Source: Candidatus Sumerlaeota bacterium
GTDB taxonomy: Bacteria; Sumerlaeota; Sumerlaeia; MWCT01; JAUWMI01
Length of the DNA: 64,000 bases
Direction: 5' to 3'
Assembly (NCBI GenBank): GCA_030613245.1
Contig: JAUWMI010000022.1
Location: 2,114-66,113, forward strand
Shown here: piece after piece, positions 11,433 through 48,299 of the stretch
Numbering within the stretch: position 1 is the stretch's first letter
Layout of the letters: every line of letters begins with the position of its first letter
Notes under the pieces: generated by a model
Database searches by the model: none
What the model saw: the letters and a program-made list of their open reading frames with translations, nothing else
Told to the model about the DNA's origin: nothing
Position numbers and translations under genes: made by a program

Positions 11433-11510
11433 TGGCGTCCCCAATGGGATTCGAACCCATGTTGCAGGATCGAAAATCCTGTGTCCTAGGCCTGACTAGA
11501 CGATGGGGAC
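11433..11510 (-). tRNA. tRNA-Glu(TTC)
   Basis: GTCCCCATCGTCTAGTCAGGCCTAGGACACAGGA-TTTTCGA-TCCTGCAACATGGGTTCGAATCCCATTGGGGACGCCA; CCA encoded. Confidence 0.95.
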
Positions 11511-11524
11511 GCCGGGCAAAAACT

Positions 11525-11566
11525 TGGTGAGCGTGGCAGGAGTCGAACCTGCGACCAACGGCTTAA
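11525..11566 (-). repeat. att direct repeat 1: original tRNA-Lys 3' half with CCA
   Basis: 40 bp (11527-11566) identical to the tRNA-Lys 3' half (17015-17054), completed by CCA; lies 14 bp upstream of tRNA-Glu. Confidence 0.92.
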
Positions 11567-12017
11567 GATTCTTACAAATACATTAAAGCACCATCAGATG
11601 AACTAAGGAATAATGGCAAAAGTGGCTTCCAAAAATCAAGGGGAAAATGCACCTTGGCTTTACAATCGTGAAGTTGGAGCTGACCATTATGGTGTTTTAG
11701 AAATAGAAAGTGATAAAAGCCTGAGCGGGATTATGAGGATTACAGCTTATCAAGCAAGGTAAACATATGTTTAATGTTTGAGCCCTTCAAATAGTTTTTG
11801 AAATCCCATTTTATTTGCATAGCAATGACTTTAGCCAAATTTGGTGTCCATATTTTTTCTTGTTCGCCCAAATATCTAGTCACCTTGAGTACGAAAGAGC
11901 CACTCAATCCTGGTGCTCGTGGTAACTTAATCTTGGACCCGCTAGAAGTTTCTATATTTTCTAGTTCCATAGGGTACGCGCAGTAGAGGAAATCTTTATC
12001 TGAAGGCTTTTTGCTAT
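11527..12017. repeat. 491-bp duplicated block, copy A
   Basis: Colinear, diverged copy of 13644-14134 (att + spacer + 3' part of the protease gene). Confidence 0.9.
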
Positions 12018-12486
12018 ATGGAATGGTGTGATAGCTCATCGGCATATTGTAAACACCATTCTCTCTTTCATCCTTAAGCTGTGACGGATATCCGCAAACC
12101 ACTAGATTTGTATTGTCGAAGGAATACGCGCTGAAATCATCAATCAACTCGAAATCTTTAAATTCGTACGCAGCGGGCAACTCGCACTCACCGATAACCT
12201 CTATAATGCCTATGTCAGTTTCATCATCAGTAAAAGCTGCATAGCGGAGCTGTTTATCATAGATTCTCTTATTTTTCTGAAGAATTATATAGCGGCCGCT
12301 TTGCATCTGAAAAAACTCGTCCGCCACGTGCCTACAGGTCGCAATGAATACACGACCATCATACCTGAGAAGGTTTCCTGTCCCGATTGCACGTACATAA
12401 CAGCTTCTTGACTTCACCCACAGATTAAGCGCGTGTCGTGTTTGTCTATCGAGTTGGACTTGTTTGTCAGGCAAATCTTTGCCCAT
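11740..12486 (-). CDS. Trypsin-like serine protease domain protein
   Basis: GTG, TCRHV (His), DIGII (Asp), GLSGS (Ser) in chymotrypsin-fold order; no signal peptide. Confidence 0.6.
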   Translation of the reverse strand: MGKDLPDKQVQLDRQTRHALNLWVKSRSCYVRAIGTGNLLRYDGRVFIATCRHVADEFFQMQSGRYIILQKNKRIYDKQLRYAAFTDDETDIGIIEVIGECELPAAYEFKDFELIDDFSAYSFDNTNLVVCGYPSQLKDERENGVYNMPMSYHTIPYSKKPSDKDFLYCAYPMELENIETSSGSKIKLPRAPGLSGSFVLKVTRYLGEQEKIWTPNLAKVIAMQIKWDFKNYLKGSNIKHMFTLLDKL

Positions 12487-12514
12487 ATCATTGCCGTTAA
12501 TGGCTAGTATTTAT

Positions 12515-12545
12515 GCCGAACTGATTATACGGTCCAGTATAAGAC
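12515..12545 (-). other. attI-like site 3
   Basis: Minus strand GTCTTATACTGGACCGTATAATCA-GTTCGGC, 28 nt before ATG 12486; resembles the palindrome at 16568-16594. Confidence 0.4.
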
Positions 12546-12626
12546 CTTAAGAGCGCCAGTTGTGTGCCTACACTTGTGGGCGCTAGTGTGCCCATTTCTC
12601 ATCTGTTCCATGTTTTGTTTCATTCA

Positions 12627-12731
12627 GTCCCAACGATTTCTGCATACGTACTACAACAATCGTGGCAAGAGTTGTATGGCAAAATCAAGGGAAAACGCAC
12701 CTTGCCTTTGCAGTGCAGGTGTCGATTAGGA
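12627..12731 (-). other. attC-like imperfect inverted repeat
   Basis: Minus strand TCCTAATCGACACCTGCA...TGCAGAAATCGTTGGGAC, about 20 nt after the stop of 12751-13479. Confidence 0.45.
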
Positions 12732-12750
12732 GCGATTTATTAGGTGAGAA

Positions 12751-13479
12751 TTAGTACCGACTGCGGACCTCTCCTAGATTCTTGCTGAGCTTTTCTACAT
12801 CTCCCCAATACCCAGTGTTAAAAAACTTATGAATCTTCATCGAGGCATCCACTAGTAGAGCTGCGGTTGGGTCGATATAGGCAAGGTAACTTGCTAGCGG
12901 CTCTTCTTTGTAATAGATGATGGAGAAGTCATTGCCATGTATTTCTGTATGCCTATCTACCAGAGCCTGAATGTTGCAATGTACATAGTTGCTCACGTAA
13001 CTGTAGAATGACCTATATTCGTCCGCCATTCCAGCACGGTCAAAACGCTCATAGACATTTAGAGGGACGTATCCTTTATCCTTAAGTTTTGCGAGTTGTG
13101 TTTCATGCCTCTTTATTTCCGCGTCGAGGTCCTCCAGCTGCGATAGGTCCTTAAGATACGGGTTTGGCTTGTTCTTGGCTTCTTTGAGAATCTTTATCCA
13201 TTGGTATTCGAAGATAGCCTCCATGTGGTAGCCATAATCTGCTTTGGCATGGAGGTTCTTCAGCTCAACATACGCTTCAAGTATTGAGCGGAAAATGGGA
13301 GGCACGCCAGTTCCGAGGTTGCGTTCAATTAATCTGATGAGGCATCCACTAAGCTCAATCAAGGTTCCATATAGCCCTACCAAATAGAGCTGCCGAGGAT
13401 GCTTATGGTCAAGCCGAATATTTTGTGAGAGCCGGATGCATTCATCATGCAGGTTCTTGAGATATCTAAAAATCTCCAT
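12751..13479 (-). CDS. DUF5677-like (HEPN-like) hypothetical protein
   Basis: RSILE...YSYVSNYVH motif pair; helical; typical island/cassette cargo. Confidence 0.55.
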   Translation of the reverse strand: MEIFRYLKNLHDECIRLSQNIRLDHKHPRQLYLVGLYGTLIELSGCLIRLIERNLGTGVPPIFRSILEAYVELKNLHAKADYGYHMEAIFEYQWIKILKEAKNKPNPYLKDLSQLEDLDAEIKRHETQLAKLKDKGYVPLNVYERFDRAGMADEYRSFYSYVSNYVHCNIQALVDRHTEIHGNDFSIIYYKEEPLASYLAYIDPTAALLVDASMKIHKFFNTGYWGDVEKLSKNLGEVRSRY

Positions 13480-13506
13480 TTTTGCGTTCTTGTGCGTAAT
13501 TTTTCT

Positions 13507-13518
13507 GTCTAACTACTG
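13507..13518 (-). other. attI-like core site 2
   Basis: Minus strand CAGTAGTTAGAC, identical 12-mer to 16424-16435; 27 nt before ATG 13479. Confidence 0.5.
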
Positions 13519-13643
13519 CTTATCTCGCGCGTCCAAAACGCGTCCAAACCTTGTATCAAACCATCCGTTTTTGTCCTATTTGACCGAGACAATGCAAGAA
13601 ATTAGTTGCTATATATGTCATTGAAACTATTGAAATTGCGCTA

Positions 13644-13685
13644 GTGAGCGTGGCAGGAGTCGAACCTGCGACCAACGGCTTAAAA
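13644..13685 (-). repeat. att direct repeat 2 (tRNA-Lys 3' half, no CCA)
   Basis: 42 bp identical to 17015-17056. Confidence 0.92.
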
Positions 13686-13856
13686 TTCTTATAAACAAAT
13701 TAAAGCACCATCAGATGAACTAAGAAATAATGCCAAGAGTGGCTTACAGAAATCAAGAGGAAAATGCAGATTGGCTTTGCAGTCCTGAAGTTGGAGGTGA
13801 CTATTACATTGTTCTAGAAATAGAAAGTGATAAAAGCCTGAGCGGGATTATGAGGA

Positions 13857-14134
13857 TTACAGCTTATCAAGCAAGGCAAACATCAGTTTAATGTTTGAGG
13901 ACCTTAGAAAGTTTGCCTCATCCCATTCTATTTGCATAGCAATGACTTTAGCCAAATCTGGTGTCCAAATTTTCTTCTGCTTGCCGGCAAATTTAGGCAC
14001 CTTGAGTACAAAAGAGCCGCTCAAGCCTAGTGCTGGTGGCAGCTTAATCTTGGACCTGTTAGCAGTATCTATATTTTCTAGTTCCATAGGGTATGCGTAG
14101 TGCAGGAAATTTTCATCTGAAGGCTTTTTGCTAT
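13857..14134 (-). pseudogene. 5'-truncated paralog of the 11740-12486 protease
   Basis: SKKPSDENFLHYAYPMELENI...GLSGSFVLKV...ALLDKL matches the C-terminal about 90 aa; His/Asp part missing; fused to a half attC. Confidence 0.85.
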
Positions 14135-14157
14135 CAGGTGCAGTGAAATGTTGGAGC
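14135..14157 (-). other. Half attC (R'' and start of L'')
   Basis: Minus strand GCTCCAAC-ATTTCACTGCACCTG, 8 nt after the stop at 14166; GCTCCAAC is complementary to the cassette-start GTTGGAG (15298-15304). Confidence 0.7.
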
Positions 14158-14165
14158 AAATACGT

Positions 14166-15293
14166 TCATTGACTGCATCCTCTAAGATCAATTAGCCATG
14201 TGCCTGTTACTTTTTCACCTCTTGTAAGAAAATATCTGTCAAATAAATTGATAGTTGGGTCACAATGAGAAGTGATCAGTTCTAGGACAGTGCCAATCGA
14301 GGGGAGCTTTGAATTGTCGAAGCATGTAATCTTACCGTATTCGTCGCCAAACCAGTCATACTTCAATCCGGAATTTTCAGGAACGATAACTTGTGGCTTT
14401 CCACCATCTTGGTAGAGTGCCTTTAGTCCTGCGTCTACAGTCACAAAACTTTCGTGGTTGACACTAATAACCGTTGTGAGCAGTCGTAAGGCTGGGCCAA
14501 ATGATTCAAATCGCGTACCCTTATCATCTGACTCGATTTCAAGATACTCTGTGTCCATGCACACATACGATCCGACCTGAAGCTCCGATACCTCGGGAAC
14601 AGCGAGATCAATATCAAACGTTCCTGTACCTGAAGCGCTAAAGATCGTGCAGGTTGGTACGGAGGTGTTCAAATCGCGGAAAACATGAACAGCTTCCTGC
14701 AGGCACTGATGAGAAGTGTGCTTTCTCTTCTCATAAGAACGAATGTGTTGGACATGACCTGCGTATGCCTGAATTCCCTGAAGACGCAGGTTTGGACAGG
14801 AAACAATTTGCTCTGCCAAAGCTAGTGCATCGGACGGCCTCGCTCCAGTCCGATGCATGCCGACATCCACATCAAGGAGCACGCCCATGGACATTCTTCT
14901 GGCACGTAGCGCCGTGTCGAGTAAAGCAATATTGCCGGGGTGATCCACAACGACCATCAGGGAAGAAGCCGTTGTTAGCAGATTGATGAGTTTTTCTACT
15001 TTACTTGGTGTTACAACCGGCCCGGTGATGAGGATATTTTCAAGCCCTGCTTTTACCAATGCCTCAGCTTCAGAGACTTTTGCGGCACAAACACCGATTG
15101 CCCCAACCTCAATTTGCCTCTGGGCTAGGGCCGAGCACTTGTGCGTCTTGACATGGGGACGGATATTTTTGCCGGCATGCTCAACAACAGCTTGCATCTT
15201 CTTAAGGTTTCGCTCAAGGACGTCCACATCCAGAACCAAACAAGGTGTTTCAAGGTCAGATTTGTATTTCTCTGTAGTAGTCATCTGATTCAT
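14166..15293 (-). CDS. DSD1-family PLP-dependent enzyme (D-threonine aldolase / D-serine dehydratase-like), gene cassette
   Basis: RPHVKTHK (PLP lysine), GMHRTG, QAYAGH, ELQVGSY, SHCDPTINL; true start 15293 or 15284, since the ORF-track extension runs through the attC. Confidence 0.88.
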   Translation of the reverse strand: MNQMTTTEKYKSDLETPCLVLDVDVLERNLKKMQAVVEHAGKNIRPHVKTHKCSALAQRQIEVGAIGVCAAKVSEAEALVKAGLENILITGPVVTPSKVEKLINLLTTASSLMVVVDHPGNIALLDTALRARRMSMGVLLDVDVGMHRTGARPSDALALAEQIVSCPNLRLQGIQAYAGHVQHIRSYEKRKHTSHQCLQEAVHVFRDLNTSVPTCTIFSASGTGTFDIDLAVPEVSELQVGSYVCMDTEYLEIESDDKGTRFESFGPALRLLTTVISVNHESFVTVDAGLKALYQDGGKPQVIVPENSGLKYDWFGDEYGKITCFDNSKLPSIGTVLELITSHCDPTINLFDRYFLTRGEKVTGTWLIDLRGCSQ

Positions 15294-15297
15294 CAAC

Positions 15298-15357
15298 CTC
15301 CAACGGCGCTCTTCAGCCGTGGCGTCCTCGCCGTCGGCTGGAAGAGTTGGTTGGGGC
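15298..15357 (-). other. attC site (60 bp)
   Basis: GCCCCAAC-CAA-CTCTTCCAGCCG-ACGGCGAGGACGCCA-CGGCTGAAGAG-CGCC-GTTGGAG: R'', L''/L' with an extrahelical base, R'. Confidence 0.88.
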
Positions 15358-15365
15358 ATCCCCGT

Positions 15366-15869
15366 TCATTTCATATTCTTCTCGATCGTGTCCCATTTGT
15401 CCCGGTATGGGCGCAGCGTCTTTTCCGCAATGGCCGAGTGCAGGGAATCCCACCGCTGGGGGCGGACTCCATCATGCCTTTGTAGGAATGCGATGTGTCC
15501 TTTGATCAGCAAGTCGCGCAGTCTCTGCCATGTGAGAATGTAGAACCGATCTTGTCCGTCCTCCTCAATCTTGACGAACGTCACGATAAGCCGTCGCACC
15601 GGACAAGACCTTGGTTTCCCGACGACCTGACGTTTGCCGTCGAACGCGATGTCACAGAACTGCCGGATGTCGCCGAACTGCCAAGATGCACCCCGGCTGG
15701 CCTTGACTTGGACGGAGACGTGTCTGCCGGTTTCGTCGGACGCGATGATGTCGTAATGAGGGACGTTGCCGGTGAACGTGGTAGCGATCAGCCCGCGGCG
15801 CGAGAGCTCCGCCGCGACGAGGTACTCACCGGTTTGCCCGACAAGCTTGTTGCTGCGTCCTGTTCCCAT
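15366..15869 (-). CDS. PD-(D/E)XK nuclease-fold protein, gene cassette
   Basis: GEYLVAAELSRRG..YDIIA..VQVKAS; cassette start GTTGGGGC (15881-15888) is the exact complement of its attC R'' GCCCCAAC. Confidence 0.75.
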   Translation of the reverse strand: MGTGRSNKLVGQTGEYLVAAELSRRGLIATTFTGNVPHYDIIASDETGRHVSVQVKASRGASWQFGDIRQFCDIAFDGKRQVVGKPRSCPVRRLIVTFVKIEEDGQDRFYILTWQRLRDLLIKGHIAFLQRHDGVRPQRWDSLHSAIAEKTLRPYRDKWDTIEKNMK

Positions 15870-15902
15870 TATCTCGTCGTGCCCCAACGACCCGCGCAGA
15901 AA

Positions 15903-16346
15903 TCAGCGGGCTCGCTTATACAGCCGGCGATCCTTGCTGATCTGCAGAGGCCAGCGCCGCGCCCTGTAGGGTCGAATCAACAGCCTGCCGCCCACATCCT
16001 TCCGGTACTTCTTGGGGATGGGTTGTTTCTCCATTACCACGCGGCAGACCTGGTTGTCGTTCTCGATTAGCCGCTGTTTGGCGCGCGCCGATTTCGGGCC
16101 CCCAAAACGTCCCTGTAGAGCATCCAGGATGTCCTTGAGCCGGTTGTCAATATCATGAATGGCGATGCGCTTCCCCTTCTTAAGGTAAAGGAGTACGACA
16201 ACCTCAAGCTTGTCATCGGGGCCAAAGCGAGATCCCGCTTTGGCCTGGGCACCCAGGACACTGGCCAGGATCCTCTTTCGCCACCGCCTCCGATTCTTCT
16301 CGTAGGTCGGGATGTTCGCGGTGAGAGTTCGGCGAGTCTTTGCCAT
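15903..16346 (-). CDS. RusA-like Holliday-junction resolvase fold protein, first cassette
   Basis: DIDNRLKDILDALQG...IENDNQV RusA signature; GAGG RBS; follows the attI core. Confidence 0.7.
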   Translation of the reverse strand: MAKTRRTLTANIPTYEKNRRRWRKRILASVLGAQAKAGSRFGPDDKLEVVVLLYLKKGKRIAIHDIDNRLKDILDALQGRFGGPKSARAKQRLIENDNQVCRVVMEKQPIPKKYRKDVGGRLLIRPYRARRWPLQISKDRRLYKRAR

Positions 16347-16423
16347 TCACGGACCTCATGAGGCAACTGGCGCATCAAACTCAACGGGTGGTCTACTCAG
16401 GTAACACCGTTGCTCTTCGCGCG

Positions 16424-16460
16424 GTCTAACTACTGTATATATAGTTCTGTATAAAACCAT
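16424..16460 (-). other. Putative attI site
   Basis: Minus strand GTTTTATACAGAACTATATATACAGTA-GTTAGAC (GTTRRRY), about 180 bp downstream of the IntI remnant and at the head of the array. Confidence 0.65.
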
Positions 16461-16610
16461 ATAGACAGCGGTTTGCTTCTGTATAACACTCAATAATGCA
16501 TGCGATCTTACTTTGCATAAGTCTCTTATATTAAGCTCCATATGCATAAATTCCCCTTGAAGCTCCTGCGTCTTATACAGTCTGCATAAGACGCATTCTC
16601 ACAGGGCCTT

Positions 16611-16678
16611 TCAGAGCAAGTCCACCGGACTTCGTACCCCTTTTCTCCACCATTCAAAACGTGTGTATAAATCATAGT
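16611..16678 (-). pseudogene. intI: Integron integrase C-terminal remnant
   Basis: TMIYTHVLNGG then, after a 1-nt frameshift, KGVRSPVDLL*; matches the IntI terminus TTMIYTHVLNRGGxGVRSPLD. Confidence 0.82.
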
Positions 16679-17014
16679 GAATTTAGCACCCTTATCCATA
16701 TATCCTAATCCCAAAGGTGCTATCAAGCTTTTTTCTTCTTTTGGAATCGGGGCGAGAGCATTCCATAGTGCTTTCCTCCTTTGACTATTTCGATCTGGCT
16801 AGTCAGTTGCCAGCAAACGATGTAAGAGTCTTTAAGCCGCGTGCTTAGCCCTAGCAATATTCAAAACAAGGCTAGATGAAAGTAAATAGAGTGCTAAATT
16901 CGCTAGCTCAATGAGGGGATCTTCGCATGGCAAGCAGGCAAGATTCTGGATTTGCAATTATGAGAAGTCTACATGAGACGAAAGCACCGGATTGGTATAA
17001 TTAAAAATAAAAAA

Positions 17015-17088
17015 GTGAGCGTGGCAGGAGTCGAACCTGCGACCAACGGCTTAAAAGGCCGCTGCTCTACCGACTGAGCTACACGCCC
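17015..17088 (-). tRNA. tRNA-Lys(TTT), CCA not fully encoded
   Basis: GGGCGTGTAGCTCAGTCGGTAGAGCAGCGGC-CTTTTAA-GCCGTTGGTCGCAGGTTCGACTCCTGCCACGCTCAC, then a T run. Confidence 0.95.
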
Positions 17089-17179
17089 AAACTTGCCCGC
17101 CTGCGGCGGACTTGTCCGCCTCAGGCGGAGTGGACTATTTCGTTTGTACATCCCCCCCTATCCCGTAAAACAGAAAGGA

Positions 17180-17209
17180 ATGATACGCAGCCCCTGTCTG
17201 GGTTGTCAA
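17180..17209 (-). promoter_or_regulatory. Putative sigma70 promoter of tRNA-Lys
   Basis: TTGACA-N18-TATCAT. Confidence 0.55.
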
Positions 17210-17506
17210 ATCTTTTTCAAGGCGCAACTATTCTTCTGCTCCTTAGGTTGGAAGCGTTCTTGGTGACAATTAAAAATGGCGAAAATTTTCCGCAACTATT
17301 CGTCATTTGTTTTTTCTTCTTTTTGCCATTCTTCTTTTGCGCTGCAACGAGTTTTTTCACACAGATTGAGCAACGGGGATGCCTTTTCTCGGCCACTGGT
17401 TCTGTCTTTTAATGTGGTGCCTGAGCTGAGTGCGCTAAAAGATTGGTTCTTGGAATTTCATGGTGGGGGGGGTAATAGTATTTATTTGGTGATCACGTTA
17501 TCAGTT

Positions 17507-17573
17507 GTAGAGGCGGGGTTACCCCGCCCTGGGGCGAGGTTTATCCGCCTCAGGAGGGAGACCTCGCCCCTAC
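17507..17573. repeat. GTAG REP doublet
   Basis: GTAGAGGCGGGGTTACCCCGCCCT + GGGGCGAGGT..ACCTCGCCCCTAC with nested TCCGCCTCAGG (also near 17115-17129). Confidence 0.7.
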
Positions 17574-17778
17574 AAAGTCATGTCGCAAACCCTATATGCA
17601 TTCTTAAATAGTGCCTAAAGGCCGACAGTTTTACTGACAGATGGTCCACTACAGATTGCGAAGAGCTAAAAGATTCACGTTGACAAATTACACGAGTCTC
17701 TCCATTTTCTGCTATGTGGAGTTTTGCAAAACCCTTCCTGGACATTGATCATAAGGTAATTTCAAGGAGGTTGTTGTC

Positions 17779-41995: not shown

Positions 41996-42019
41996 CAGAT
42001 CCTCCTGTAAACGTTAAAC

Positions 42020-43738
42020 TTAATCCGCAACAGTAGAAGCGAGAACTTCTTCTGGCGTCGTTAGGCCTTCAAGCACCTTTTTCGTGCCGGATTGACGTAA
42101 TGTTTCCATACCCTCTTCTATCGCCACTTTCTTCATATTGGTAGAAGAGATACCTTCTATTATCAGGTCACGCATTCTGTCTGAGACCACCATTACCTCA
42201 TAGAGTGCGATGCGGCCTTTGTAGCCGGTCATGCGGCACCGGTCGCATCCGATCCCCTTGTATATCTTGATCTCTTTGGAGTCCTGAATTTTCAGAGCCG
42301 TCATGAGGTCTGCGGAGAGCTTATAGACCTCTTTACAGTTTTCGCAAATGCGTCGTACCAGGCGCTGAGCCACTACCATGTTGATTGATGCCGTGACCAG
42401 AAACGGCTCGACCCCCATGTTTGTCAAGCGGTTGATACTGCTGGGAGCATCGTTGGTGTGGAGCGTACTGAGCACCAGATGGCCTGTGAGTGCGGCCTTG
42501 ACTGCAATTTCCGCAGTTTCGAGATCCCGCACCTCGCCAACCATGATAATGTCAGGATCCTGACGAAGGAAAGAGCGGAGTCCCTCGGCAAAGGTCAGGC
42601 CGATTTCAGGCTTTGCCTGGACTTGATTGATTCCCTTTATCTGATATTCAATTGGGTCTTCAACGGTAATGATGTTCTTGCGCGGATCGTTGATGGTGGT
42701 AAGAGCAGAATAGAGGGTAGTTGATTTTCCGCTTCCTGTTGGCCCGGTGACCAGCATCATTCCCCACGGCTGCCGGATTTGCTCTTCAAACTTCTTCAAA
42801 GCATCTGGCTCAAATCCCAGATCTGAAAGGCCTAAACTCAAGATGCTCTGGTCCAGAATACGCATAACCACCTTCTCTCCGAACGCGGTCGGACAGACTG
42901 ACACCCGGAAATCGATTGGCCGATTCTGTATCCGTACCTTAAAGCGTCCGTCCTGTGGAAGGCGCCGCTCAGCAATGTCCAGCTCAGAAAGTATTTTAAT
43001 GCGCGAGATAATTGCGTTCTGGAACTTTTTTGGAGGCGATGTCATTTCCTGGAGCACGCCATCAATCCGGTAGCGCAACCGAAGGCTCTTTTCGTACGGC
43101 TCGACGTGAATATCACTTGCCTTGGCCTTAATGGCTTCTGAAATGATCAGATTTACCAGCTGGATTACCGGTGCATCATTAACCTCCACCGCCAGGTCGG
43201 CATCATCTTCTTCTTCGATCTCGTCCTCTTCTTTGATAATCTCCATCTCCTGGTCGGTAATATCCTTCAGCATCTCCTCGAAGTTGTCCTCTTCCCGGGA
43301 ATAATAACGACTAATCGCTTCGGCGATATCGGATTCAAAACTGATTACCGGAATGATTTGACATTTCGTTAGGAGCCGAAGTTCGTCGAGCAGGTAGATG
43401 TTTGATGGATCCGAAAGGGCGATAGTCAGCGTGTCGCCTGTTTTATCAACTGGGACAATTTTATATTTCCTGACAATTGACTCCGGGATACTTTCAAGCA
43501 CCTGGCGGTCAATTTCATAGTGTGCAAGCGTAATAAAAGGAACGTTTAGCTGCTTGCCAAGTGCTGCAGCCATCTCCCATTCTGAGGCTAAACCGAGCTC
43601 CACCAGAATGTGGCCCAAACTGATGCCGCTTTCCTCTTGTTTTTCAAGTGCGCCCTCGAGATCTTCCTGCGTGATGATAGAATCCTTCACCAGCATCTCG
43701 CCCAGTTTGCGTTCCATCGCTGTCGGCATCACAACCAC
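42020..43738 (-). CDS. pilB: Type IV pilus assembly ATPase
   Basis: ASDIHVEP, GPTGSGKSTT, LRQDPD, STLHTND, CxxC..CxxC; N-terminal KLGEMLV domain. Confidence 0.93.
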   Translation of the reverse strand: MVVMPTAMERKLGEMLVKDSIITQEDLEGALEKQEESGISLGHILVELGLASEWEMAAALGKQLNVPFITLAHYEIDRQVLESIPESIVRKYKIVPVDKTGDTLTIALSDPSNIYLLDELRLLTKCQIIPVISFESDIAEAISRYYSREEDNFEEMLKDITDQEMEIIKEEDEIEEEDDADLAVEVNDAPVIQLVNLIISEAIKAKASDIHVEPYEKSLRLRYRIDGVLQEMTSPPKKFQNAIISRIKILSELDIAERRLPQDGRFKVRIQNRPIDFRVSVCPTAFGEKVVMRILDQSILSLGLSDLGFEPDALKKFEEQIRQPWGMMLVTGPTGSGKSTTLYSALTTINDPRKNIITVEDPIEYQIKGINQVQAKPEIGLTFAEGLRSFLRQDPDIIMVGEVRDLETAEIAVKAALTGHLVLSTLHTNDAPSSINRLTNMGVEPFLVTASINMVVAQRLVRRICENCKEVYKLSADLMTALKIQDSKEIKIYKGIGCDRCRMTGYKGRIALYEVMVVSDRMRDLIIEGISSTNMKKVAIEEGMETLRQSGTKKVLEGLTTPEEVLASTVAD

Positions 43739-43999
43739 TCCAACAAAAAATTGATCATCAGCCTAAGAATCAGACAATTTATCTATAATACAGGTATATT
43801 AGATATTGCAGTTTTGCTCGGGTGTCAATTCAAAAGATGGTAACAAAGTATTCCATCTTCACGCTATGGTCTATCACTGCCTTCAACAGCGAGATCCTCA
43901 TTTCCTTGGGGTTACGATCAGAAATCCCACACTGGAGATGAAATTAATCGTCAGGATCGGCCTTTCGCAATGGGCTTTGGTGCCAATGCCCCGAGGTGC

Positions 44000-45256
44000 C
44001 TATTCACGGGTGTGCCCGGAACCAAAGACGATGAATTTTGACGTCGTGAGCTCCTTAAGGCCCATGGGCCCGCGGGCATGCAGCTTATCTGTACTAATGC
44101 CAACCTCGCAGCCCATACCAAATTCACCACCATCGCTAAATCTGGTCGAGGCATTGACGAACACACATGCCGAATCAACCTGGTTGAGAAAGGCCATGGC
44201 ACTGTTGTGGTCCTGCGTAATAATAGCATCTGTGTGATGCGAGCCATAAGTATTGATGAATGTAATGGCCGCCTCAGTGCTTTCGATAGTTTTAACCGAG
44301 AGAATAAGAGCGAGATACTCGGTAATCCAATCCTCTTGTGTGGCTTGCTTGAGCTGAGGGAAATGTGCGCGCACCTGTTCACAAGCCCGAATTTCCACAC
44401 CTGCTTTTTCCAAAGCCGGAATCAGAACGGGCAGCAGCTTATCGGCGACCTGCTGATGGATCAAGAGCGACTCTACAGCGTTGCACACTCCAGGGCGTTG
44501 CGTCTTGGCGTTCAGAATGATGCGGTTGGCCATTGTCACGTCGGCCGATGCATCAATGTAGATGTAGCAATTGCCATCGTAATGCTTGATCACCGGAATG
44601 GTAGAGTTCTTGACCACTGTTTCGATTAATGCGCGTCCTCCTCGAGGAATAATCAGATCAATGTATTCGTTCAGCCTGAGCATTTCGCTTACTACTTCGC
44701 GCTCTGTTACGGGAACGAGTTGAATAGCTCCCCCAGGGAGTCCGGTGCGGGTGCCAGCCTCTGCAATGACATCGGCAATCTTGCGGTTCGAATTAATGGC
44801 CTCCGAGCCCCCGCGCAGAATTACGACATTTCCTGATTTTACACACAGAGAGGCGGCATCCGACGTGACATTGGGACGCGATTCGTAAATGAAACCAATT
44901 ACCCCGATGGGAACTCGCATGCGTCCAACCCTCAGGCCGTTGGGGCGGGTACGCATATCGTAGATCTCCCCTACCGGGTCGTCCAGAGCCGCAACCTGGC
45001 GAATTGAGTCTGCCATGGCCTGGATGCGTTTCTCATTGAGAAGCAGCCGATCAAGCAATGCTGCTGATCTTCCCTGGGCTTTCCCCTTCTCAAGATCCTG
45101 TTGATTTGTTGCCTGCAGCTCTGCCTGGTTATCCTGGAGTGCATCTGCCATGGCGAGCAAAGCCCTATTCTTCACCTTTGGCTCTAGCGCTGCAAGAATC
45201 GCGGCTGCGGCTTTTGCGTTCTTCGCCAACTCGAGGATCAACTCGCGCGGCTTCAT
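44000..45256 (-). CDS. proA: Gamma-glutamyl phosphate reductase
   Basis: IYESRPNVT, CNAVESLL, NASTRFSDG, KLHARGPMG. Confidence 0.97.
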   Translation of the reverse strand: MKPRELILELAKNAKAAAAILAALEPKVKNRALLAMADALQDNQAELQATNQQDLEKGKAQGRSAALLDRLLLNEKRIQAMADSIRQVAALDDPVGEIYDMRTRPNGLRVGRMRVPIGVIGFIYESRPNVTSDAASLCVKSGNVVILRGGSEAINSNRKIADVIAEAGTRTGLPGGAIQLVPVTEREVVSEMLRLNEYIDLIIPRGGRALIETVVKNSTIPVIKHYDGNCYIYIDASADVTMANRIILNAKTQRPGVCNAVESLLIHQQVADKLLPVLIPALEKAGVEIRACEQVRAHFPQLKQATQEDWITEYLALILSVKTIESTEAAITFINTYGSHHTDAIITQDHNSAMAFLNQVDSACVFVNASTRFSDGGEFGMGCEVGISTDKLHARGPMGLKELTTSKFIVFGSGHTRE

Positions 45257-45273
45257 TTGCTTCTCCTTCTTGC

Positions 45274-47479
<2,206 letters not shown>

Positions 47480-47612
47480 TTATTGTGCATTCGGATCCGG
47501 TACGGTCATGCCTAAGCACGCATTACAAAAAACTACCCCCTCATCTGGTGTCACATCGCAAACCACTCGCAAATCTATGCCATACATGGCAATGCGTACC
47601 GGAGAGGAGGAG

Positions 47613-47882
47613 CTAGTTAGTTGTGGAAGGTGCTATTATGTTAATAATACGTTTCTTGCCATTCTGACGGCGGACAAATTTGACTATTCCGCTTATCTTG
47701 GCAAAGAGCGTATCGTCTTTGCCCTGGCCGACGTTTTGACCAGGAAAAAATCGAGTGCCTCGCTGGCGTACCAGAATTGTTCCACCGGTCACCATCTGAC
47801 CGTCAGAAGATTTCACACCCAGTCGCTGCGAGTGGCTATCACGTCCGTTTCTTGAACTGCCTACGCCTTTCTTGTGTGCCAT
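47613..47882 (-). CDS. rpmA: 50S ribosomal protein L27
   Basis: [16 protein letters not shown]; start ATG 47882. Confidence 0.97.
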
Positions 47883-47954
47883 ATTTCTTACGCCTCCCGT
47901 AAAACGCTGCGTCAGGCAACGTGCTGCCCGCGTGCCATGGCTTGTCGGCAATGT

Positions 47955-48299
47955 CTAGGCTTCCTGCGCTGCTTTCTGGCGAGCCTGACGCAACTTGATT
48001 TTGTCAATCGTAATTTCAGTGAAATCTTGCCGATGCCCTCGTCGCTTCTCGTATCCCTTACGCCGCTTATAGGTATAGACGAGAATCTTTCGTCCACGGC
48101 CGTGTCGCACAATGGTGCCTTCGATCTTGGCATTGGCCACTTTGGGGTTTCCAATAAGGACGTCATTGTCCTTCTTCACCATCAACACGGTATTCAGCGT
48201 TACCTTGCTTCCAACATCACCGGGGATCTTCTCAATACGAAGCCTCTCCCCTTCCTTGATGCGGTATTGTTTTCCGCCGGTCTGAACAATAGCGTACAT
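47955..48299 (-). CDS. rplU: 50S ribosomal protein L21
   Basis: MYAIVQTGGKQY..RGHRQ. Confidence 0.97.
   Translation of the reverse strand: MYAIVQTGGKQYRIKEGERLRIEKIPGDVGSKVTLNTVLMVKKDNDVLIGNPKVANAKIEGTIVRHGRGRKILVYTYKRRKGYEKRRGHRQDFTEITIDKIKLRQARQKAAQEA

Follow-up and report, generated by a model that had tools for sequence, protein, structure and literature searches.

We analysed a region of the Candidatus Sumerlaeota bacterium assembly GCA_030613245.1 in which small genomic islands and gene cassettes lie between a tRNA-Glu and a tRNA-Lys gene, at positions 11,525 to 17,088 of a 64,000-nucleotide stretch of contig JAUWMI010000022.1 (hereafter the window, to which all coordinates refer unless another contig is named). 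In the reading that we consider probable, a decayed inverted integron heads tandem tRNA-Lys islands that lack an integrase, an integron integrase (IntI) that acts in trans has turned its cassettes over, and the islands no longer move.

The source assembly (G000) is made up of 97 contigs, and the region lies on contig C25. It was compared with two congeners (G001 and G002), with a relative carrying an intact IntI (G010) and with the metagenome runs X1, X2, X3 and X5; those runs in which the region occurs come from cold seeps and marine sediments. All three genus assemblies are incomplete bins, 93–96 % complete.

The frame of the region is given by a tRNA-Lys gene and two copies of its 3' half, next to a native tRNA-Glu gene (tRNA genes were called with ARAGORN):

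11433..11510, minus strand: tRNA-Glu(ttc), native to the site and separated by 16 nt from the outermost tRNA-Lys half copy; the same arrangement is found in G001 and G002.
11527..11568, minus strand: distal att scar (copy 1 of the tRNA-Lys 3' half), spanning the anticodon loop and everything 3' of it (40/40 by BLAST; 42 nt in register).
13644..13685, minus strand: tRNA-Lys 3'-half copy 2, the junction of units 1 and 2 (42/42 identical).
17015..17088, minus strand: intact tRNA-Lys(ttt), the proximal att.

A sequence-only reading of this region had claimed that three copies of the tRNA-Lys 3' half delimit two small units, and the exact repeats, spaced 2117 and 3371 bp apart, bear this out. Unit 1 is the distal unit beside tRNA-Glu, and unit 2 is the tRNA-proximal one. 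Tyrosine integrases that build tandem tRNA islands cross over in the anticodon loop, and the repeat indeed begins in the anticodon loop of tRNA-Lys(UUU) (TTAAGCC...), matching classical tyrosine-integrase att sites. Exact tRNA-half repeats at the bounds of the units are the classical signature of tyrosine-integrase insertion into a tRNA gene, and here they reproduce the 3' half of the target tRNA without a mismatch, as expected of a tRNA-integrated island. Insertion of IntI itself into the tRNA at GTTGG was ruled out because the repeat starts 8 nt upstream, in the anticodon loop. All six open reading frames (ORFs) of the region lie on the minus strand, which is also the strand of tRNA-Lys. The G+C fraction is 0.38–0.46 over 11600-14400 and 0.59–0.625 over 15400-16200, against 0.50–0.56 in the flanks. 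The homology between the unit right ends that the same reading had observed was also confirmed: 491 bp (11527-12017 against 13644-14134) align at 87 % identity. A right end with a tRNA-Lys half stands beside tRNA-Glu at the same site in all three members of the genus. In G001, which has only two tRNA-Lys half copies, the intact tRNA-Lys and the platform described below are on a separate contig from the right end, and in G002 the left side is unassembled.

At the tRNA-proximal end of unit 2, where an island integrase would usually be expected, lies the remnant of an integron:

16631..16839, minus strand: intI pseudogene in two blocks, co-oriented with the cassettes (from tblastn, a paralogue alignment with the same junction, and reading frames).
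16431..16662, minus strand: attI region and platform spacer, with the crossover after G16430 (86 % identical to contig C52 8924-9151 and 90 % to G001).

The sequence-only reading had seen a 22-codon IntI tail as the only recombinase trace. That tail (...LGYMDKGAKFTMIYTHVLNGGEKGYE, 16631-16708, minus strand) is present and corresponds to residues 315-338 of the G010 IntI (61.5 % over 26 aligned positions, E 0.19, tblastn), and these were the only residues that tblastn with an intact IntI aligned in the window. The trace is nevertheless longer than had been thought. A second block, RLKDS...IEIVKGGKHYGML, at about 16745-16839, resembles IntI residues about 163-190 by eye and in the paralogue alignment, so that about 60 codons survive in all; some 160 codons have been lost from the N-terminal side and about 115 from the interior. 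After the IntI tail, 230 bp (16436-16662) share 86 % identity with C52 8924-9151, and window positions 16426-17444 are 90 % identical to G001 contig C94 over 1019 contiguous nt without large gaps, with the same tRNA-Lys and the same dead intI.

The word GTTAGAC at 16424-16430 is the junction of attI and the first cassette, G16430/TTAGAC (the slash marks the crossover). Over the ~100 nt that lead up to this G, platform copies are identical at 88/97, 90/101, 91/98 and 91/100 positions, and beyond GTTNNNN they become unalignable. The comparison thus indicates what is expected of an integron, namely an attI beside intI with cassette entry at G/TT. On the minus strand the order is intI remnant, attI, cassettes and attC, and attI follows the 3' end of intI, as it does where the integrase is inverted.

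Two cassettes follow the attI:

15304..16429, minus strand: cassette 1 with two genes, a RusA-like gene (15903-16346) and a 173-aa ORF (15366-15887, likely ATG at 15869).
15298..15356, minus strand: canonical attC (59 nt) of cassette 1 (model R1, 65.6 bits; model R2, 54.6 bits, E 2.9e-12; fold z −3.8 and −3.9).
14134..15303, minus strand: cassette 2, a D-amino-acid aldolase/dehydratase-like (racemase-like) gene (Pfam Ala_racemase_N and D-ser_dehydrat).
14134..14156, minus strand: putative truncated attC of cassette 2, with R'' CTCCAAC at 14150-14156, then 16 nt, then a deletion junction.

The attC sites were identified with two covariance models, R1 from six sites recognised in G000 and R2 enlarged to 19 G000 sites; they superseded a hand-written scanner (AAC...GTT, R pairing and fold energy) that returned 129 candidates genome-wide and missed known sites. 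Fold z values were obtained from shuffles of the DNA. The site at 15298-15356 forms the imperfect hairpin characteristic of attC, with R'' CCCCAAC, L''/L' CAGCCG/CGGCTG with the extra base on the 5' side, and R' GTTGGAG (15298-15304). When R2 was run over the 64-kb window with filters off, it returned 6 matches at E ≤ 10, of which this site alone had E < 0.01, and no second match fell inside 11525-17088. A weak match far from the region (42006-42109, 14.9 bits, E 0.25) is probably due to chance. Across G000 the model gave 22 matches at E ≤ 1 on nine contigs. As an outside control, R2 was applied to plasmid R100, where it scored the aadA1 attC of In2 (L060 13475-13534) at 53.3 bits on the aadA1 strand and, over 50 kb, returned nothing besides this attC and its own opposite strand. 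Because a model trained on G000 finds the aadA1 attC, the G000 sites are taken as bona fide attC of the common type.

The sequence-only reading had placed an attC or attC-like hairpin after most genes, and this did not survive: R2 and the folds leave one intact site, beside which there is one putative truncated site. The case for the truncated one comes from its surroundings. Downstream of the racemase-like stop codon, CTCCAAC at 14150-14156 is exactly complementary to cassette 2's own GTTGGAG, contigs of X2 and X5 carry cassette 2 down to 14134 and then differ, and the homology of units 1 and 2 also stops at 14134. To judge from these alignments, position 14134 would mark an attC that a deletion cut and joined to the 3' portion of a gene paralogous to the 248-aa gene of unit 1.

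The same reading had put a GTT core before each of five genes. All five words exist, and two of them, GTTAGAC at 16424-16430 and GTTGGAG, are cassette junctions; GTTAGAC at 13507-13513 is likely a remnant, while GTTGGGG and GTTCGGC are not junctions. GTTGGGG (about 15880) lies inside the two-gene cassette 1; at this place the C52 paralogue has a 491-bp deletion that is flanked by short direct repeats and does not fall at G/TT. GTTCGGC (about 12516) is unsupported: similarity to G002 reaches no further than the start codon of the 248-aa gene. The RusA-like gene (Pfam RusA, E 3.3e-5, with a PHROGs match) and the 173-aa ORF form one cassette.

At the second junction, G15304/TTGGAGG is followed by the racemase-like gene, and contigs of X2, X3 and X5 have one of their ends at 15304 or 15298. 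The protein of cassette 2 scores 273 bits against NF045642, below the 690-bit cut-off. The start chosen by the ORF caller for its 397-aa frame (ATG 15359) lies within the preceding attC, and an in-frame ATG at 15291-15293 stands just past the GGAGG of R' (GTTGGAGG). The gene likely starts at ATG 15291-15293, and since GGAGG directly precedes it, the recombination site may supply the ribosome-binding site. The cassettes hold no recognised resistance genes, and PADLOC found no match among the 5 proteins.

Cassette content differs exactly at G/TT in three comparisons, namely with the paralogous platform on C52, the orthologous platform of G001 and the X2 metagenome. The sequence-only reading had named, as the result that would speak against it, one large integrase-bearing island in relatives without cassette variation at the GTT sites, and for the tRNA-proximal unit such variation is present in congener, metagenome and paralogue alike. 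In G001, the array behind tRNA-Lys and the dead intI opens with a GNAT cassette and continues with a 156-aa cassette (attC of 22.3 and 32.2 bits), G/TTGGAGG and a racemase-like cassette with 98 % identity to cassette 2. A contig of X2 (depth 12, shorter side 80 letters) joins 15304 to 16435 via TTGC, so that cassette 1 is exactly absent; the joint reads attI ...TATATACGCAAG/TTGGAGG (...ACGCAA)G/TTGGAG. In X3, cassettes 1 and 2 are on separate contigs that end or begin at 15304. On C52 the attI stands before a lipoprotein cassette that has an attC of its own; GTTAGACCGCGC comes next, and then, in second place, the RusA cassette with the same attC as in the window; divergence sets in right after GTT, and this RusA cassette has lost the 173-aa ORF in the 491-bp deletion noted above.

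The shared cassette 2 is distal, and the lineage-specific cassettes adjoin attI, as would be expected had they entered at attI once the lineages had separated. The dead intI is common to G000 and G001, so at least part of the cassette turnover took place when intI had already died, which points to an IntI from another source acting in trans. Between G000 and G001 (L053 1501-2650) cassette 2 has 98 % identity although it stands behind a different attC and the flanks are only 90–93 % identical, and contigs from three other studies carry it at ~99 % identity (about 10-12 letters differing). From these identities it looks like a cassette in current circulation.

Loading in trans had already been proposed from the sequence, and the variation at GTT beside a shared dead intI speaks for that part; what has not come to light is a donor. 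None of the nine TIGR02249 matches in G000 passes the 265-bit cut-off, and no IntI match at E ≤ 1e-30, the threshold used for congeners and class, was found in G000, G001 or G002. At the level of the class, an intact IntI is present in 2 of 73 genomes. A metagenome scan for the word of the IntI tail found two loci, which were checked for attC and tRNA and had neither.

The idea that the islets are also moved in trans found no support. The profile PF00589 has no match on C25 and four in all of G000 (on C84, on C52 twice and on C67), and none of these four tyrosine recombinase genes stands beside a tRNA-Lys(ttt) att site. The 402-aa integrase of C67 was considered as a helper and rejected, as the fragment next to it derives from tRNA-Lys(ctt), whose anticodon arm is different. 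This locus (C67 17139-17861) holds the integrase gene, ~155 nt later a 47-nt exact tRNA-Lys(ctt) 3' fragment, and then GGGCAC repeats, and may be an attP-like or tandem junction. Among four metagenomes, no joint adequately supported an island circle or an empty site. Joints 11563 to 17023 (X3, side 27) and 13546 to 15302 (X1, side 20) were not used, being too short or attributable to tRNAs of other organisms or to the C52 paralogue.

The dead platform is not confined to this locus. About 6–9 diverged copies were found in G000, and both congeners have several matches to the platform or to the region of the intI remnant. The same internal intI deletion junction occurs on C25, C49, C30, C37 and C65, with weaker copies on C86 and C19, and an N-terminal intI pseudogene lies on C10. 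The locus on C49 (L025, ~43900-48170) comprises tRNA-Gly(ccc), a left arm of the kind seen in unit 1, a dead intI that forms one open 109-aa frame, an attI with GTTCGGT, and cassettes, with three attC matches (at 46887, 44444 and 43946). C86 (L036, 156100-157400) shows a tRNA fragment, a degenerate intI remnant (a weak match, recognised by eye) and two attC sites; the tRNA 3' fragment is chimeric, with a Gln-like anticodon arm and a Lys(ctt)-like acceptor. All of this lies in an island at 137443-159440 whose bounds are 60-nt repeats of tRNA-Leu(taa), of which there is also an 88 % copy; it is a second case of tandem tRNA-bounded units.

On C52 (L012, 1-10900) there is a phage-like element with primase/helicase-like and terminase large subunit-like genes and a 376-aa integrase. 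Within 10 nt of the stop of this phage-type integrase lies a 16-codon IntI tail, then attI and the two cassettes, and these are followed by a GGACGCG-repeat arm and a 50-nt tRNA-Gly(gcc) 3' fragment. C52 is thus an integron platform inside a prophage- or satellite-like element.

Unit 1 and the right ends contain the remaining features of the region:

11569..11739, minus strand: conserved right end of unit 1, with repeat families D3 and D5 and a 57-nt core at 11609-11666 (86/104 identical to the G001 right end).
11740..12486, minus strand: ORF for a 248-aa protein, the island right-end gene.
12642..12754, minus strand: third, vestigial right-end copy (113 nt), directly after the DUF5677 gene, with D3 and D5.
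12751..13479, minus strand: DUF5677 gene (Pfam PF18928, E 2.9e-21).
13507..13523, minus strand: likely junction remnant ATAAGCAGTA/GTTAGAC, family D9 (15/17 match to the unit 2 junction at 16424-16440).
13527..13643, minus strand: left-end arm of unit 1, GGACGCG-TTTT-GGACGCG (BLAST 76 % over 70 nt to C86).
13686..14133, minus strand: right end of unit 2 with the 3' part of a 248-aa paralogue, truncated at 14133/14134 (384/449 to unit 1, 380/449 to G002).

The 248-aa protein has no match in Pfam, NCBIfam, PADLOC or PHROGs, and is 81 % identical to a protein in a Candidatus Sumerlaeota record; its His, Asp and Ser motifs, judged by eye, presumably resemble those of a trypsin-type protease. A contig scan with this protein returned one locus, in a congener, and no intact parent island. 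Unit 1 matches G002 at 459/492 positions (93 %) over the 492 bp that span the 3' part of its gene and the right end, against 85–86 % between unit 2 and either of them; on this basis the two units are either old paralogues or arrived separately, and did not arise by recent duplication. Right-end elements were also considered as long attC and ruled out, with no R1 or R2 match and fold z of +0.69 (unit 1), +0.79 (unit 2) and −0.42. The vestige after the DUF5677 gene scores 74 against unit 1 and 66 against unit 2 (shuffle maxima 48 and 52), and may mark what was once a third boundary between units, now eroded. The sequence at 12615-12745, which follows the DUF5677 gene, has an R''/R'-like closing stem and was rejected as an attC, with z −1.29, 21 of 200 shuffles as good and no model match. 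The DUF5677 gene has no DNA match in G001 or G002, and no evidence was found that this gene or the 248-aa gene is a cassette.

The left arm of unit 1 runs straight into ATAAGCAGTA/GTTAGAC. The 12-mer CAGTAGTTAGAC shared by this word and the unit 2 junction occurs at only these two places in the genome, and by this likeness 13507-13523 is likely a junction remnant; its source would be either a truncated attI or a truncated attC, of which it would form the 3' end. Of the attI sites that the sequence-only reading had assigned to both islets, the unit 2 platform therefore stands, whereas unit 1 keeps only these 17 nt. The same left arm occurs after tRNA-Gly(gcc) on C86, after tRNA-Gly(ccc) on C49 and after a tRNA-Thr in G002, and before the tRNA-Gly fragment on C52. 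The GGACG-repeat motif by itself is not enriched genome-wide (24 found against about 19 expected). G002 contig C161 (L055, 1-1150) carries tRNA-Thr(tgt), the left arm, a 145-aa ORF and a small helix-turn-helix (excisionase-like) ORF, and is probably an intact left end of this island family. Beyond tRNA-Lys, short G+C-rich palindromic repeats of the TTGTCCGCCTCAGGCGG family lie at 17093-17128 and 17505-17580. The 17505-17540 repeat has about 15 copies in G001 and G002 at 91–94 % identity, which identifies it as an element like a repetitive extragenic palindrome (REP) or a miniature inverted-repeat transposable element (MITE).

Taken in order, the mechanism that we propose would run as follows. 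A genomic island would have entered tRNA-Lys(UUU), between the anticodon loop and the 3' end, by means of a classical tyrosine integrase, and would now be represented by two tandem units without an integrase gene. The tRNA-proximal end of unit 2 holds an inverted integron platform whose intI died through N-terminal loss and internal deletion. Circular cassettes would insert at the attI crossover G16430/TT and be excised by attI × attC or attC × attC recombination. Since the resident intI is dead, such recombination needs an IntI made elsewhere, and its source would probably be a mobile element outside the binned assemblies. The present array consists of attI, cassette 1 with its canonical attC, and cassette 2, whose attC would have been truncated by a deletion and fused to a truncated copy of the right-end gene. 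From the comparisons we infer that IntI acts in trans, that the islands are immobile relics inherited within the genus, and that unit 1 formerly bore a full platform. The alternative that the sequence-only reading itself had offered, two decayed larger islands, is borne out to this extent: unit 2 would have lost its left arm and most of intI, with its second attC fused to a truncated gene, and unit 1 would have lost the platform except for 17 nt.

Several points weigh against this account. No IntI donor was found in the assemblies of G000, G001 and G002, which are binned and as such often miss mobile DNA; equally, an intact intI of their own could simply be unassembled in these incomplete bins. 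The 5 nt to the left of the crossover (16431-16435) read CAGTA in the window, CGCAA in G001 and X2, and CGCAT on C52, a difference that a clean exchange at G/TT does not predict, and GTAG/TTAGACCGCGC is common to the attI crossover of the window and the attC/RusA junction on C52. Homologous exchange between the many paralogous platforms could explain part of the array differences. R2 gives no match on the truncated attC alone (14134-14200), and a genome-derived attC model may miss long or atypical sites. Promoter-like sites are not enriched in the region (7 against 8.1 expected); terminator-like sites number 2 against 5.3 expected. Lastly, the listed independent X1 contigs end at the repeats (11514-11730, 13672-13847 and 15350-15890) and leave the tandem order unbridged.

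This last point, together with the 97 contigs of the source assembly and the mere two tRNA-Lys half copies of G001, would suit an artefact in which the repeats joined in series two island variants of co-existing strains, and the tandem order is indeed that of this assembly. We regard an artefact as highly improbable, because right-end repeats of only 87 % identity can be separated by short reads, X1 record 3 passes from unit 1 into tRNA-half copy 2 (12304-13672), X1 depth is even over both units at about 8–16, and tandem tRNA-half repeats are also seen at tRNA-Leu(taa) on C86. A different objection accepts the locus as assembled and denies its activity: the integron would be long dead, with no site-specific recombination, and the differences would be ancestral variation, deletions and homologous recombination between paralogues. 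The want of an intact intI in all three genus assemblies agrees with this, as do the clear non-IntI deletions (the 491-bp loss on C52 and the fusion at 14133/14134), the duplication of the platform and the RusA cassette as substrates for homologous exchange, and the unexpected differences just left of G/TT among the copies. Yet whole cassettes are present or absent exactly at G/TT in three independent comparisons, G000 and G001 combine the same dead intI with different first cassettes and a common distal one, and cassette 2 is better conserved than its flanks and recurs at ~99 % in contigs of three other studies; a wholly static relic is accordingly unlikely in our judgement.

The two-tier model of the sequence-only reading, in which each unit is a non-autonomous tRNA-targeted islet with its own attI, loaded by IntI and moved by a tRNA-Lys integrase, both in trans, we find similarly hard to sustain. 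Exact att-like repeats do bound the units; the left arm of unit 1 is common to islands at other tRNAs and its junction word matches that of unit 2 at 15/17 positions; platforms with the same deletion adjoin other tRNAs or fragments (tRNA-Gly(ccc) on C49, and C86 at 156 kb), as if an already dead module had spread; and the greater divergence of the unit 2 right end makes two separate integrations plausible. Unit 1, however, has no attI beyond 17 nt and no attC, unit 2 has none of the left-arm motifs, none of the four tyrosine recombinase genes of G000 adjoins a tRNA-Lys(ttt) site and that of C67 sits by a tRNA-Lys(ctt) fragment with a different anticodon arm, no supported circle or empty-site joint appeared in the four metagenomes, and the right end with its tRNA-Lys half sits beside tRNA-Glu in every member of the genus. 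A broader possibility, which we put forward tentatively and think doubtful, is that the dead-intI/attI platform is a long-lived, multi-copy, non-autonomous 'docking module' that rides tRNA-targeting islands and phage-like elements and is loaded by rare IntI-bearing elements. It is compatible with the low identity (only about 70–90 %) among the copies that share the intI deletion on C25, C49, C30, C37 and C65, and with the position of several platform copies right after tRNA genes or fragments or in a phage-like element. If true, it would imply a population-level split between many integrase-less platforms and few integrase donors. Trans loading of a decayed inverted integron on sedentary islands remains the account that we prefer.

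The locus resembles several known systems without coinciding with any of them. A cluster of attC sites lacking an integron integrase (CALIN) is defined by at least two close attC without intI nearby; according to Cury et al. 2016 (PMC4889954), intI pseudogenes occur near 15 of 279 CALIN, and intI loss is one proposed origin of them. The region shares with these the cassettes and attC without a working intI and the recognisable intI pseudogene alongside. It differs from CALIN in that the genome-derived model gives one intact attC in the window, the attI is retained and is the site of cassette differences between relatives, the platform occupies the tRNA-proximal end of an island, and about 6–9 diverged copies of the dead platform exist in one genome. 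PMC3607928 and PMC4889954 describe inverted ('reverse') integrons, with Treponema among the examples, and the former also describes chromosomal integron loss in Treponema; as in those accounts, intI here is co-oriented with the cassettes and its stop codon precedes attI. Two relatives have the same co-orientation at their intI loci (L040 and L043). Unlike those integrons, this one has a dead intI and a platform lying within tRNA-bounded islands and, on C52, within a phage-like element.

With tandem tRNA islands the region shares direct repeats of the tRNA 3' part, an intact tRNA at one end, serial units and a deviant composition, while its units are very small (2.1 and 3.4 kb), lack an integrase gene and carry a dead intI and attI in the usual place of the integrase. 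The attC of mobile integrons (aadA1 in In2 of R100) is alike enough in sequence and structure to score 53.3 bits with a model built from G000 only, whereas the host here is an uncultured marine-sediment bacterium related to Candidatus Sumerlaeota and the cassettes hold no recognised resistance genes. A literature search for Sumerlaeota and integron returned no paper with either word in its title or abstract. What sets this region apart is that an attI persists next to a dead intI while the cassettes behind it differ from species to species, that the same dead platform recurs in many diverged copies, and that it is located at tRNA-proximal island ends and in a phage-like element.

These results document canonical, aadA1-like attC and inverted integron platforms in the candidate phylum Candidatus Sumerlaeota, and establish a physical link between integron platforms, tRNA-targeting islands and a phage-like element. 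Cassette 2 appears to circulate at 98–99 % identity over several marine-sediment and cold-seep data sets. Integrons have mostly been studied where intI is intact, and integrase-less arrays, common as they are, are usually treated as dead ends. If IntI does act in trans, integrase-less platforms would be live gene-capture sites, and surveys that require intI would undercount them.

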